A stretch of 64,000 nucleotides of DNA from a candidate division WOR-3 bacterium (lineage in GTDB: Bacteria; Hydrothermota; Tepidihabitantia; B3-TA06). Within the stretch, counting starts at the first letter, position 1. Each line of letters begins with the position of its first letter. Position numbers and translations under genes: made by a program. The DNA lies in contig JAFGSK010000044.1 of assembly GCA_016934635.1 (NCBI GenBank), positions 27,708 to 91,707 on the forward strand, written 5' to 3'. Under the pieces are notes generated by a model. That model did no database searches, was not told the DNA's origin, and saw only the letters and a program-made list of their open reading frames with translations. Shown here one piece after another: positions 1,255 to 29,440 of the stretch.

Positions 1255-1420
1255 GGGTTCTCCTCCAAATGCGTTTATTTAGAATGATTGTAGGGAAAAA
1301 CAAGTGGATGTCAAGTCACTAAGACGTTGTTGAAAGGGTATTTTTACTAGTTAAAAGCCTTTTGGATTTGACTTTTCACTTCAGTTGTATATTCTTAGGG
1401 GATATGATAGGAGATTTAAC

Positions 1421-2902
1421 ATGCTAAGAAGGCTCGGTGTAATTCTCGCCCTTCTGAGTGGTTTGCGTGCATTCGAAGATGTCTCTTTTTCGGCAAGAAC
1501 ATTGGGTTTGGGGGGAGATCAAACCGCAGTTGTTGATGATGCCTTTTCATCCCTAGTAAATCCGGCGTTATCCGCACACTGGAAAAGACCAGTCGTCGCT
1601 CTTTCCTTACCGTACGGTTATATATTCAACTCATCCTTTATTTACGTTCAACCGGTAACTGGCCTGGGAACCGTCGGCGGCAGTCTTTTTTACAGAAACA
1701 TGACAGGAGTGAATTTCGGAGATCGTTTGACTGAAGCCGATGGCAGGTTTTTCATGGCAATACCGATAGGTAGATTTTTCTCATTCGGGGCATCGCTGGG
1801 ATCAGTCAGCCAGATCTACTCTTCTGAATCCGGTGGGTATCCTTTAGCCCGACAACGCTTTGAGCCGGGACCAATTCTGTCCTTCGGCGGAGCTATCTCT
1901 ATTCCATTAGGACTAAGTGCCGGTTTTTCTATATCGGAAATGTGGCTGGAAAGGAACCCATTACTCCAGGGCGGTGTTTCGTGGAAATCTGTTGTAAAGA
2001 ACGGTTTGATATCCTCTTACCTTATCGCAGGTAATGTAGCATACAGGGACGCCATAATTAAATTTCACAGCGGATGTGAACTGTTTCTTCTTAAAGATAT
2101 TATTGGGTTAAAGGCGGGTTTTCGCTACGGATCGGACACTCTCTCAGGGTTTTCACCTACGTTCGGTGTTACGATCCGTACACATCGAGTAGAAAAAACC
2201 GATTTTGAAATCCACTACGGTATGATCTTGGATGATATATCGTATGAGGGATTAGACATGGTTCACCAACTCAGTCTTGCAGTTGCGCTCGGTGACGCCC
2301 GCAAACAGGAGAAGGACAGCATTAAGATAGCCCAGGCGGAGCGAGCAAGGAAGCTCAGGGAGCAGAACCTGGCGCGAGAGATTGACCAACTGCGTGAGGA
2401 ACTTGCTAACATCTCCGAGGAACGCTCAGCCTTGGAAAAAGAACGTAAAGACATAGAAAGGCTTCGTGCCGAGGCATTGGCCGACTTAGGAAGGGTGAAT
2501 GGAATTAGAGTTGAAGAAGACTCGGTAACTATCCGAATCAGGCTTACCGAGCAGGCGCTTCGTTTTGAACCAGGTTCCGCAGAAATACCCTTCCCGAAGG
2601 GTTACCGTACCCTAAAGCGAGTGGGTGATTTCCTGTCTCACTATCCCAATAACAATGTTTCGATAAACGCTCACACTGACAGCTCAGATATCCCGGAAGA
2701 GACTCAAAAAGTCTTCAAAACAAACCGGGAACTTTCGAGTGCGCGGGCCGATGTCATCAAGCAATACCTTGTCGAGGTCACCGGGATATCTCAATCGCGA
2801 ATAACCGCCAAAGGCTTAGGCGATAGTGAACCTCTGAAGGATAACGAAACCGAGGAAGGTCGGGCATCCAACCGCAGGGTTGAGATCTCAGTAGCCCTTT
2901 AG
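1421..2902 (+). CDS. PorV/PorQ-like barrel fused to a coiled coil and an OmpA/MotB peptidoglycan-binding domain
   Basis: N-terminal SARTLGLGG...DAFSSLVNPA (PorV-family motif); heptad-rich segment; C-terminal HTD...NRELSSARA...GLGDSEP...NRRVEI. AGGAG SD supports ATG 1421. Confidence 0.8.
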   Translation: MLRRLGVILALLSGLRAFEDVSFSARTLGLGGDQTAVVDDAFSSLVNPALSAHWKRPVVALSLPYGYIFNSSFIYVQPVTGLGTVGGSLFYRNMTGVNFGDRLTEADGRFFMAIPIGRFFSFGASLGSVSQIYSSESGGYPLARQRFEPGPILSFGGAISIPLGLSAGFSISEMWLERNPLLQGGVSWKSVVKNGLISSYLIAGNVAYRDAIIKFHSGCELFLLKDIIGLKAGFRYGSDTLSGFSPTFGVTIRTHRVEKTDFEIHYGMILDDISYEGLDMVHQLSLAVALGDARKQEKDSIKIAQAERARKLREQNLAREIDQLREELANISEERSALEKERKDIERLRAEALADLGRVNGIRVEEDSVTIRIRLTEQALRFEPGSAEIPFPKGYRTLKRVGDFLSHYPNNNVSINAHTDSSDIPEETQKVFKTNRELSSARADVIKQYLVEVTGISQSRITAKGLGDSEPLKDNETEEGRASNRRVEISVAL

Positions 2903-3000
2903 GATGTTTTTAACATATCCGGAAGCGCTTACTTTTCTGATGAAGGCAGGTTTTCCCGTGCGTTATTTTGAATCTGTTTGTACGGAAGTAAAGAAGGTGT

Positions 3001-3044
3001 ATAAAGAAGTTCCCTGCGGCAGCGCATAAGGCTGCCGCAGGGAA
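3001..3044 (-). terminator. Intrinsic terminator of the 40-aa peptide gene (possibly bidirectional)
   Basis: 14-bp perfect stem TTCCCTGCGGCAGC/GCTGCCGCAGGGAA, followed by CTTCTTTAT on the minus strand. Confidence 0.8.
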
Positions 3045-3063
3045 AAGAGGAGGCATTAAGTGT

Positions 3064-3186
3064 TTAATTGCGATAACTTATGGCAGCATCCGCAGTCGGA
3101 GTCTGCCTGATCTTCGCTTCAAGCTTGCGAATCATCTCTTTCTTGAGACGTTCTTTTTCGTCTTTCGATTTTATCTTCAACTTCAT
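3064..3186 (-). CDS. Unannotated 40-aa basic peptide MKLKIKSKDEKERLKKEMIRKLEAKIRQTPTADAAISYRN
   Basis: AAGGAG SD, upstream sigma54 promoter and downstream terminator; below the ORF-track length cutoff. Confidence 0.75.
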   Translation of the reverse strand: MKLKIKSKDEKERLKKEMIRKLEAKIRQTPTADAAISYRN

Positions 3187-3210
3187 CTCACTCTCCTTTT
3201 CTCCATCTCA

Positions 3211-3226
3211 AGCAATTATCGTGCCA
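3211..3226 (-). promoter_or_regulatory. Sigma54 (-24/-12) promoter
   Basis: Minus strand TGGCACGATAATTGCT matches TGGCACG-N4-TTGCW exactly. IHF-like TAACAATAAGTTG at 3238-3250. Confidence 0.8.
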
Positions 3227-3400
3227 GATTTCTTTTTTAACAATAAGTTGTGATATTGAAGAATTTAGATGCGAATATCGGTAAATGCTTAATATGCGAA
3301 ATTGTCCAAAAGTATAATTGTGGTGTTCTTTTTAAGTACATGGAAAGACCGACCCAATTCGACCTTCAATCCGCCCCCCTTGTGTTTTTTTTGCGAGCGG

Positions 3401-3559
3401 TTACTCCTCGGGCGAAAAATCGTCTTTACCTGCTCCGCACACCGGGCATGTCCAGTCGTCGGGTAAATCCTCGAACGCGGTTCCCGCCGGGATGTCCGAA
3501 TCCGGATCGCCTACTGCAGGATCGTAAACGTATCCGCATATGTTACAGATGTATTTCAT
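3401..3559 (-). CDS. Rubredoxin
   Basis: [14 protein letters not shown]...WTCPVCG with two CxxC motifs; AAGGAG SD before ATG 3559. Confidence 0.97.
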
Positions 3560-3637
3560 TTGCTGCTCCTTTTTTCCAGATATCACAATTCAGCAGGTAC
3601 ACGGCATACCGTATCCCTACATACCCGTATTATACGC

Positions 3638-4090
3638 TTAAAAGATAATTTTCACAAGCTCACTCGGCTCCAGCCTGAACACGGAACCTTTACCCTGGAA
3701 AAAACCGTGCTCTTCGATAAGATGGATGTTCAGGTCGGCCCACTTGATCTCGTCGCCTGAATCGATCTTTAGGACGGTGGTAACCGTCTTGTTTGCCCTG
3801 AAGGCATGGGGCCAAGGACAAGCAATTACTCCCCGGACATCGGTTGTACAGGCCTTGATATTCTTGCCTATCTCCACCCAGTCACCCAGACCTTCATTCG
3901 CCCTGTCAGTGATCTCGTGCATCCTGGTCGCGATCCCGGTCATGGTATAGCCCAGTTTTTCCACCTCGGAGGCATCGGCGTCTAGAATCTCCCACAACGA
4001 TCTTTGATCGGTACCCAGGAAGCCGCGCGCTGACAATCTCGATGAGCGCAAGGTCTGCTCCAAGTATTCAAGCTGGGGTGGTTTCTTCAT
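3638..4090 (-). CDS. Hypothetical protein downstream of nqrF
   Basis: 150 aa, AAGGAGG SD, CPWPH and HLIEEHGFFQG motifs. Confidence 0.75.
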   Translation of the reverse strand: MKKPPQLEYLEQTLRSSRLSARGFLGTDQRSLWEILDADASEVEKLGYTMTGIATRMHEITDRANEGLGDWVEIGKNIKACTTDVRGVIACPWPHAFRANKTVTTVLKIDSGDEIKWADLNIHLIEEHGFFQGKGSVFRLEPSELVKIIF

Positions 4091-29175: not shown

Positions 29176-29230
29176 AAAAGAAGACCGCCCCCGGACGGGG
29201 GCGGTACAGGAGGTGTTTCTGAGGAGGGCT
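29176..29230 (-). ncRNA. Candidate sRNA with two CCUCCU anti-SD motifs
   Basis: Perfect TTGACA-N16-TATAAT at 29264-29237, no ORF, 9-bp GC hairpin followed by CTTCTTTT. Confidence 0.65.
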
Positions 29231-29440
29231 GATTCTATTATAGTCATCGGAAACTCCCTGTCAAGCTGAGGTACTATCGAGAATTCAGCAGGATACCTAT
29301 CCATATCTCTTAATAAGCTACCAAAAGAGACTTGCAGCTAAAAAGGATTCAATCCAATCAACAATGGGGAAAAGCCAAAAAGACGAATTGAATTATAAAC
29401 AATCTGCTTGACAATAAACCCAATCGGTCTATGCTTGAGT

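Follow-up and report, generated by a model that had tools for sequence, protein, structure and literature searches.

A predicted sigma-54-dependent small-protein gene with a conserved anti-Shine-Dalgarno-like motif near its 3' end in an uncultured bacterial lineage

A compact small-protein gene conserved within one family

The DNA analysed here, a stretch of 64,000 nt from contig JAFGSK010000044.1 of a candidate division WOR-3 bacterium (hereafter the window), carries on its minus strand, between positions 3317 and 3001, what is very probably a real, translated and sigma-54-dependent gene for a small protein. The window lies on contig C67 of a source genome (G000) that comprises 3.33 Mb in 90 contigs and is 90.7% complete. 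A first-pass annotation, made from the sequence of the window alone, had described at this place a complete minus-strand unit of promoter, AAGGAG Shine-Dalgarno (SD) sequence, 40-amino-acid open reading frame (ORF), CCTCCT in the 3' untranslated region (UTR) and 14-bp terminator, and all of these elements were found. A palindrome farther upstream, which that annotation had not covered, emerged from alignment of the units; with this candidate activator site included, the whole unit spans only ~320 bp (Table 1). Counted from the inferred start to the terminator, the predicted transcript would measure ~195 nt here and 184-208 nt across orthologues, whose predicted leaders are 14-26 nt long by the same start rule.

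Table 1. Features of the unit, in coordinates of the 64,000-nt window; the unit is read 5' to 3' on the minus strand
Feature	Position	Strand	Remarks
Upstream palindrome TTATACTTTTGGACAA, candidate upstream activator sequence (UAS)	3302..3317		Family consensus TTATC-N6-GATAA; 91 nt 5' of the -24 element
IHF-like site CAACTTATTGTTA	3238..3250	minus	12/13 match to the IHF consensus; probably fortuitous
Sigma-54 -24/-12 promoter TGGCACGATAATTGCT	3211..3226	minus	GG at 3225-3224, GC at 3213-3212
Predicted transcription start	3198..3202	minus	Inferred from the usual sigma-54 geometry, ~12 nt past the C of the -12 element; predicted 5' UTR ~14 nt
SD sequence AAGGAG	3193..3198	minus	ATG 6 nt downstream
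ORF of 40 amino acids MKLKIKSKDEKERLKKEMIRKLEAKIRQTPTADAAISYRN	3064..3186 (stop included)	minus	ATG at 3186, TAA at 3066..3064
3' UTR motif AATGCCTCCTC, anti-SD-like, contains CCTCCT	3047..3057	minus	6 nt past the stop codon, 2 nt before the hairpin
Intrinsic terminator	3001..3044	minus	14-pair hairpin at 3044..3010, then U-poor tail CTTCTTTAT

Searches with tblastn and with profiles found the peptide in nine of the ten other genomes of the same family. Second copies, here called type-2 paralogues, are present in the source genome (contig C10) and in a genome of the same genus (G001), and the 12 full genomic loci are ten type-1 orthologues plus these two paralogues (L002 in G000 and L017 in G001). 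The order of palindrome, sigma-54 promoter, SD, ORF of 36-42 amino acids and terminator recurs at all 12, the promoter lying 24-36 nt before the start codon. The GGAG/GGAGG core of the SD stands in the same place in 11 of them, the remaining locus (L008) reading AGGAA, and a terminator hairpin follows every orthologue, with a stem sequence that differs between genera. A pattern scan of metagenome contigs, in which only the coding core served as query, returned five stretches, one of them a chance match in an unrelated ORF. The four true members all share the full layout, including palindrome, 3' motif and a promoter at the same distance range from the start codon. The tenth relative, G006, holds a remnant in which only the final 14 codons are left, followed by 3' motif and terminator. 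In addition, a DNA contig of relative X2 aligns over positions 3128-3200 and then enters a diverged stretch that still contains TGGCACGGTAATTGCT.

The type-2 copies (G000:C10:26579-26822 for L002; on G001:C383 for L017) are diverged and have the same palindrome and sigma-54 promoter; the copy in G000 starts with GTG. They are located between a divergent arginyl-tRNA synthetase gene and a gene for a secreted S8 subtilase with a fervidolysin-type prodomain.

Outside the family, 121 other genomes of the class gave one weak match (E 0.01), and none of 261 other genomes of the phylum gave a match at E ≤0.001. A profile search of 1.84 billion representative proteins returned nine matches of 37-73 amino acids, which are family members or look-alikes of 37-39 amino acids, and a collection of 5.8 billion proteins returned 18, unnamed or called 'hypothetical'. 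Several database homologues carry N-terminal extensions that run through the promoter and represent mis-called starts. As judged from these searches, the protein family does not extend beyond a single family of an uncultured candidate phylum.

A sigma-54 promoter and a shared upstream palindrome

The promoter is the sole TGGCAY-N5-TTGCW site in the window. Shuffled windows held 0.07 such sites on average, with at least one site in 7 of 100, which suggests that a single site in one window is only marginally non-random. Genome-wide, TGGCA[CT]-N5-TTGC[AT] was observed 36 times against ~6.4 expected from base composition, and the stricter TGGCACG-N4-TTGCT 16 times against 0.4. In sequence terms it is this excess, together with the conserved layout of the unit, rather than the match in one window, that carries the weight of non-randomness. 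The perfect TGGCACG-N4-TTGCT reported at first pass stood up to inspection, its -24/-12 spacing being exact and the site being kept as TGGCA[CT]-N5-TTGCT at all 12 genomic and all four metagenome loci.

The source genome also encodes the corresponding machinery. A scan for rpoN gave a PF04552 match of 141.5 bits on contig C60, and a scan for bacterial enhancer-binding proteins (bEBPs) gave 12 strong PF00158 matches of at least 204 bits; by their coordinates, most of the bEBP genes adjoin a sigma-54 consensus promoter. Both an rpoN gene in the genome and conservation of the ORF in relatives, on which the first-pass annotation had made its proposal depend, were thus present.

At two or fewer mismatches, the palindrome lies at -85 to -91 from TGGCAC in 11 of the 12 loci, among them paralogues of both types. 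Its distance to the -24 element agrees with the ~80-150 bp expected of a sigma-54 UAS, which makes it a candidate activator site. Of five perfect palindromes in the source genome, three sit 72-119 nt 5' of sigma-54 promoters (that of the C10 paralogue, C50:31538 and C56:9581), and palindromes with one mismatch precede the sigma-54 promoters at C33:8497 and C41:2196. A search for the composite of perfect palindrome, 60-90 nt and sigma-54 consensus gave 12 matches in 8 of the 11 family genomes, whereas the reversed control gave none. Where such a match does not belong to the peptide gene, the promoter is placed to drive a signal-peptide protein with SBBP beta-propeller repeats or FlgD-Ig-like domains. 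Because genes for secreted surface proteins likewise have the palindrome in front of their sigma-54 promoters, the peptide gene appears to belong to a small regulon and is not the orphan that it had been taken for; its paralogue on C10 likewise speaks against that description. We infer that a single bEBP may control a small regulon related to the cell surface, in which no other member is conserved as consistently as the peptide gene.

A further site of this kind, G000:C56:9581(-) (L110), combines a sigma-54 promoter and a perfect TTATCCATAAGGATAA palindrome with an ORF of 78-86 amino acids (MIDIKDRGRAIEIPVTKDIIDLLENVGF...), followed by a gene for a 167-amino-acid lipoprotein. The ORF is a putative second small protein of the same putative regulon.

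The IHF-like site that had been noted between palindrome and promoter is present as a sequence. Scored against the complement of the IHF consensus, YAANNNNTTGATW, it matches at 12 of 13 positions. Across homologous loci its occurrence is no better than chance, an IHF-type site with at most one mismatch being found between palindrome and promoter in 2 of 12 loci as against 11% of shuffled intervals. A conserved IHF site between UAS and promoter was rejected on these counts, and the match in the window is probably fortuitous.

The reading frame is under protein-level selection

Selection was analysed over 36 aligned codons of the 12 loci, three near-identical pairs being left out of the ranges. 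The proportion of synonymous differences (pS) is 0.39-1.0, near or beyond saturation, and that of non-synonymous differences (pN) is 0.10-0.44; the ratio of the corresponding rates (dN/dS) is 0.04-0.47 for the diverged pairs in which it was computable. Start codon, SD and reading frame are kept at 12 of 12 loci, and the sole internal length change is an in-frame insertion of one codon in two loci. On these substitution patterns, the ORF is a protein-coding gene under protein-level purifying selection.

An RNA that acts only as a non-coding small RNA (sRNA), with a fortuitous ORF and with conservation reflecting RNA sequence or structure, would agree with the short transcript and its minimal leader, and the seed-like motif beside the terminator does resemble the ORF-less small RNAs of the genome described below. 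Such an RNA would not be expected to keep start codon, SD and frame throughout. Because synonymous sites are saturated while the amino acids are kept and the single length change is in-frame, a fortuitous ORF in a non-coding RNA can for practical purposes be excluded, which leaves this explanation with a very low probability.

The peptide of the source genome has an isoelectric point (pI) of 10.2 and no cysteine. Among 20 members of the family the pI exceeds 9 in 17 (the exceptions being 6.1, 6.1 and 8.1) and is ~9.5-10 in most, none contains cysteine, serine and threonine number 1-4 and glycine 0-2, and there is no hydrophobic segment; no signal peptide or double-glycine site was found in the peptide family. 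Conservation spans the whole length and includes the C-terminal tail ADAAxxY, in which A32, A34 and Y38 are nearly invariant. Given the family alignment, AlphaFold2 predicts a helix over residues 8-28 (predicted local distance difference test, pLDDT, of 85-92 for this block), then a break and a short low-confidence helix over the ADAAxxY tail, with a mean pLDDT of 76. The charged helical part recognized at first pass agrees with this predicted helix. The product is thus modelled as probably a basic, cysteine-free, cytoplasmic protein of 36-42 residues with one long amphipathic helix and a short tail.

The first-pass annotation had favoured the precursor of a ribosomally synthesized and post-translationally modified peptide (RiPP) or of a signalling peptide, with a conserved leader and a C-terminal core that is modified and exported. 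A small stand-alone peptide under tight transcriptional control would suit such a precursor, as would the type-2 paralogue, which in both genus-g1 genomes is found upstream of the gene for the secreted S8 subtilase. That subtilase gene comes after a terminator and has a sigma-70-like promoter of its own. The comparison by tblastn that was to reveal a conserved leader and a variable core instead showed conservation over the full length, with the C-terminal ADAAxxY among the conserved parts. Lack of cysteine in all 20 members, few serine, threonine and glycine residues, the missing double-glycine site and a peptide that is throughout a charged helix, free of signal peptide and hydrophobic stretch, likewise argue against maturation and export. 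As had been noted, no modifying enzyme is adjacent: the neighbours within ~10 kb include no radical SAM, YcaO, LanB/C/M-type or transporter gene. The proposed genome-wide scan for RiPP recognition elements and peptidase-containing transporters returned no PqqD-type element (PF05402) and no C39 peptidase (PF03412), and YcaO (PF02624) was not found either, although in a genome that is 90.7% complete their absence is unproven. We therefore consider a modified-peptide precursor highly improbable.

Database searches placed the protein beside no described family. The best Pfam match, DUF1866, had an E-value of 0.055, short of the cut-off; NCBIfam had no match for the peptide; in PHROGs one of the 20 members matched, at E 0.0034; and PDB sequences gave a best E-value of 0.068. 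Foldseek returned no match in the PDB, and the ESM Atlas nothing usable. Relative to the databases searched, this is a new small-protein family. Our best guess for its role is a regulatory binding partner (for example, in feedback on an activator) or a nucleic-acid-binding helper. In sigma-54 systems, negative feedback by regulon-encoded partners is known, as in the action of PspA on PspF. That the small protein binds its bEBP as a feedback modulator of its own sigma-54 activator is a specific form of this guess that we consider improbable. An amphipathic helix devoid of enzymatic potential and the best-conserved UAS-promoter pair of the regulon would both fit it, but the searches showed no sequence similarity to any such regulator, and no cognate bEBP was picked out.

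A conserved 3' motif with the potential to pair with Shine-Dalgarno sequences

Just before the terminator, nine of the ten type-1 orthologues carry an identical 11-mer, AAUGCCUCCUC; the tenth, L009, reads AATGTCTCCTG in DNA and AAUGUCUCCUG in RNA. The 11-mer is also present in the G006 remnant and at all four metagenome loci. The 6-21 nt between stop codon and motif cannot be aligned and the hairpin after the motif differs as well, and at the nucleotide level the motif is more conserved than the coding region.

As the motif contains AUG followed by CCU CCU, it could be a mini-ORF (Met-Pro-Pro) for re-initiating ribosomes, which on stalling beside the terminator hairpin would modulate termination or read-through, the latter running antisense into the OmpA-like gene that converges on the unit. 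All ten orthologues keep the AUG, 6-21 nt past the stop codon, and CCU CCU comes next in nine. There is, however, no preceding SD, L009 reads Met-Ser-Pro, and the frames beyond Pro-Pro are unrelated and reach no stop inside the transcript. The third positions of the proline codons never vary, which points to constraint on nucleotides rather than on codons. We accordingly think a mini-ORF very unlikely.

CCUCC is the exact complement of the GGAGG-type SDs of this lineage. Predicted duplexes between leader and 3' motif have energies of -7.0 to -13.3 kcal/mol in all ten orthologues. When full transcripts were folded, the probabilities of pairing between the motif and the first 25 nt were 0.81, 0.62, 0.80, 0.04, 0.96, 0.59, 0.60, 0.30, 0.01 and 0.74, that is, at least 0.30 in 8 of 10. 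The motif type is also found apart from the peptide gene: a number of short transcripts in the source genome, none with an obvious ORF, are made up of little else than CCUCC motifs and a terminator, which suggests that the CCUCC module is also employed where no SD lies in cis. Genome-wide, 18 of 321 strong terminators have CCTCC in the 25 nt before them, against a background of 2.75%, a roughly two-fold enrichment (binomial p 0.004). The 10-mer AGGAGGCATT stands at six plausible ribosome-binding sites in the source genome, as expected for any SD-containing word.

A candidate dual-function mRNA

We slightly favour a composite reading of these data, in which a sigma-54-activated small-protein gene bears a 3' anti-SD motif that pairs with SDs; the pairing itself we likewise judge to have somewhat better than even chances. 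Activated bEBP at TTATC-N6-GATAA would drive sigma-54 transcription from about position 3200, and ribosomes would load on the nascent minimal leader (~14 nt and essentially the SD alone) to make the basic helical protein. Once the 3' end has been transcribed, the anti-SD would cover an SD in the same mRNA or in a different one. In cis, folding back on the own SD after transcription is complete would limit translation to a pulse, as in icaR mRNA; in trans, the motif would pair with SDs of other mRNAs and the transcript would be a dual-function mRNA and sRNA, as are RNAIII and SR1. Both kinds of pairing could also occur together, and if the motif does pair with SDs we hold cis only, trans only and both to be about equally likely. 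Genes for secreted surface proteins have sigma-54 promoters with this palindrome upstream, and the small protein may therefore be one output of a cell-surface-related sigma-54 regulon. The transcript is a candidate dual-function mRNA, and the gene probably specifies a small regulator rather than a modified-peptide precursor. A dual-function RNA had already been raised at first pass; coding selection bears it out on the protein side, and it stays a live possibility on the RNA side because the CCUCCU of the 3' UTR lies in the 11-mer that is identical in 9 of 10 orthologues, whereas no conserved trans target appeared among the perfect complements inspected.

Several results weigh against the composite reading. 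Leader-motif duplexes are no stabler in cognate pairs, with a mean of -9.75 kcal/mol, than in non-cognate pairs, with -10.46 kcal/mol (permutation p 0.88), which argues against co-evolution beyond generic SD:anti-SD complementarity, in a test in which the invariance of the 3' motif left hardly any room for co-variation to show. Pairing with the own SD leaves the conserved AAUG portion unexplained, and the type-2 paralogues lack the 11-mer, L002 retaining only GCCUCC and L017 nothing. Perfect complements of the 11-mer are not enriched: the 11 genomes contain 38, of which ~10 are the opposite strand of the motif itself, and the reversed control gave 31. Of these 38 complements, 30 were inspected and none coincides with a translation start that is conserved; the search covered perfect complements only. 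On the transcriptional side, the U-tract of the terminator is weak in the source genome, and a scan of the regions 5' of the 12 bEBP genes for an autoregulatory palindrome, by which the cognate bEBP was sought, gave no convincing site. No RNA run was listed for window positions 2700-3700, and two metatranscriptome contig sets from the study of the source contained no RNA contig on the peptide gene (0 contigs in one; 1 in the other, over the rubredoxin gene only). As regards the protein, Pfam, NCBIfam, PHROGs, PDB, Foldseek and ESM Atlas yielded no relatives or structural matches that hint at a function. Moreover, a deletion of 212 nt in G006, seen when L015 (G006:C5:89632-92673) is aligned with L004 of G003, has taken away palindrome, promoter, SD and the initial 23 codons. 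The deletion is bounded by two copies of the 9-nt repeat AGAATCCGC and its flanks are ~99% identical to G003, so that it may represent either a recent loss or an assembly collapse.

Some of these results would also fit a gene that acts through its small protein only, the 3' 11-mer serving another role in the RNA, such as a site for an RNA-binding protein or RNase, stability of the 3' end or part of the termination signal. Leader and motif without co-evolution, perfect target complements without conservation and an AAUG that is conserved although SD pairing needs none of it are all compatible with this alternative, as is the merely two-fold enrichment of CCTCC near terminators. Because the type-2 paralogues lack the 11-mer, the protein can apparently do without it. 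Set against this are the exact complementarity of CCUCC to the GGAGG-type SDs, folds that place the motif on its own SD in most orthologues, and the ORF-less small RNAs of the same motif-plus-terminator design in the genome. Neither Hfq nor CsrA, which might bind the motif, was found in the genome at its 90.7% completeness. A protein-only gene seems to us unlikely, yet deserving of serious consideration.

In its boldest form the composite reading would have one bEBP activate both the surface-protein genes and a 195-nt RNA that encodes the micro-protein and silences mRNAs in trans through AAUGCCUCCUC, a seed resembling the 16S tail. This RNA would then be a node in a network of small RNAs with CCUCC seeds, driven by sigma-54 as well as sigma-70, and the micro-protein might assist it or feed back on it. 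We regard such a network as speculative and rather unlikely.

Relation to known systems

The kinds of element involved are already known, namely sigma-54 regulon members, small proteins, 3' UTR anti-SD elements and dual-function RNAs. Qrr and GlmY are sigma-54-linked regulatory RNAs, and the peptides of dual-function RNAs, of which SgrS/SgrT is one, measure a few dozen residues. What is known of small proteins and dual-function RNAs comes almost wholly from model bacteria in culture, and the present unit provides a cleanly delimited and comparatively well-supported case from an uncultured lineage, in which the sequence reveals each regulatory element (activator site, promoter, SD, ORF, anti-SD motif and terminator). 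Among the papers listed by a search of full text, which covers open-access sources only and is no proof of novelty, none describes a sigma-54-driven small ORF with this combination.

The icaR mRNA of Staphylococcus aureus carries in its 3' UTR a UCCCCUG that pairs with the SD of that mRNA; the pairing keeps ribosomes from loading and gives rise to an RNase III substrate (PMC3868564). The authors leave action in trans open and name RNAIII and RsaE as RNAs that use such motifs in trans (PMC3868564). The two cases share a C-rich 3' UTR motif complementary to the own SD, predicted pairing between 5' and 3' ends and the same ambiguity between cis and trans. In contrast, icaR is a gene of normal size whose motif lies 260 nt past the stop codon in a long 3' UTR, whereas here the mRNA is predicted to be ~195 nt long and the motif stands 6-21 nt past the stop. 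The promoter class also differs, and in our case the pairing is predicted from sequence and shows no co-variation.

With the dual-function RNAs RNAIII/delta-haemolysin, SR1/SR1P (PMC3526287) and SgrS/SgrT, the unit has in common a short transcript, a conserved peptide and a separate conserved C-rich or seed segment with the potential to pair with translation-initiation regions. Here, however, the protein is unrelated in sequence, transcription appears to depend on sigma-54 and a bEBP, no Hfq or CsrA was found, and the perfect complements inspected include no target. Among sigma-54-linked RNAs, GlnZ is reported to derive from the 3' UTR of glnA (PMC9731577) and Campylobacter jejuni to have an RpoN-dependent flagellar sRNA (PMC11187230). 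Qrr, GlmY, GlnZ and the C. jejuni sRNA resemble the present unit in having an enhancer-dependent promoter and a short regulatory transcript or a regulatory mRNA 3' end. They differ from it in being non-coding or processed from long mRNAs, whereas here the predicted primary transcript is itself a complete small-protein gene.

The C-rich anti-SD sRNAs, such as those with a UCCC of the RsaE type and the alpha-proteobacterial mmgR (RF00519), likewise have single-stranded motifs of the CCUCC type beside a terminator. Unlike a member of mmgR, the tiny RNA of this genome with the best small-RNA score in Rfam reaches only 25 bits against RF00519 (gathering score 41; E 0.019), which is below threshold and gives no membership. 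The peptide mRNA itself has no Rfam match: nothing in the window reaches a gathering score, and around the peptide gene there is one chance match of 13 bits.

What is gained is a new small-protein family whose genes automatic annotation in part overlooks or begins at the wrong codon, a candidate operator that would define a sigma-54 regulon of surface proteins, and a compact natural test case for a 3'-terminal anti-SD acting in cis, in trans or both. Should the motif be inert and the protein mundane, the gene would be one more lineage-specific hypothetical small protein.

Neighbouring genes and other putative small RNAs

The gene is syntenic: on one side of it an nqr/rnf-type operon ends, and on the other a gene for an outer-membrane protein with an OmpA domain runs towards it. 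Its neighbours encode a porin, the OmpA-like protein, rubredoxin, Nqr/Rnf subunits, a flavodiiron protein, a GAF protein, rubrerythrin, a low-molecular-weight phosphatase and an extracytoplasmic function (ECF) sigma factor. The outer-membrane protein (window 1385-2902, plus strand) has 505 amino acids with the OmpA domain at its C terminus, and its gene is convergent to the peptide gene in most genomes of the family. A 150-amino-acid ORF on the minus strand (window 3638-4090; MKKPPQLEYLEQTLRSSRLSARGF...), which has no Pfam match, directly follows the NqrF-like gene in the source genome and at L008 and L009. Matches of the neighbouring NqrF-like protein came from several phyla and did not place the genome clearly.

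Some sigma-54 promoters of the source genome, at C33:8497(+), C41:2196(+), C6:103110(+) and C25:11089(-), are followed by strongly purine-rich stretches full of GGAGG/GGGA, of which those on C33 and C25 end in terminators. A role of such RNAs as CsrA sponges was rejected, because the genome, at 90.7% completeness, yielded no CsrA and because the family shows no conservation of the C33 RNA at the DNA level. It is conceivable that they are a counterpart or sponge of the CCUCC RNAs.

Among the ORF-less CCUCC RNAs is a multi-copy family of small RNAs ending in CCCUCCUCCCACAC-UUAUCCUGU plus a hairpin, at C83:19493(-), C7:186807(+), C18:24123(-) and C4:5786-6320(+) (L113-L115). Two of them (C83:19493 and C7:186807) lie ~90-105 nt 3' of perfect sigma-54 promoters, that on C18 perhaps also follows a sigma-54 promoter, and the -24/-12 sequence of the C83 promoter is identical to that of the peptide gene. 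On C4, three tandem copies (at about 5786, 5935 and 6303) come after sigma-70-like promoters. In the window itself, the minus strand at 29176-29264 carries TTGACA-16-TATAAT and, after ~7 nt, a putative RNA of ~55 nt, GCCCUCCUCAGAAACACCUCCUGU, with a GC-rich hairpin and a U-tract. This RNA, whose design matches that of the tandem copies on C4, contains two anti-SD-like CCUCC motifs and lacks an ORF.

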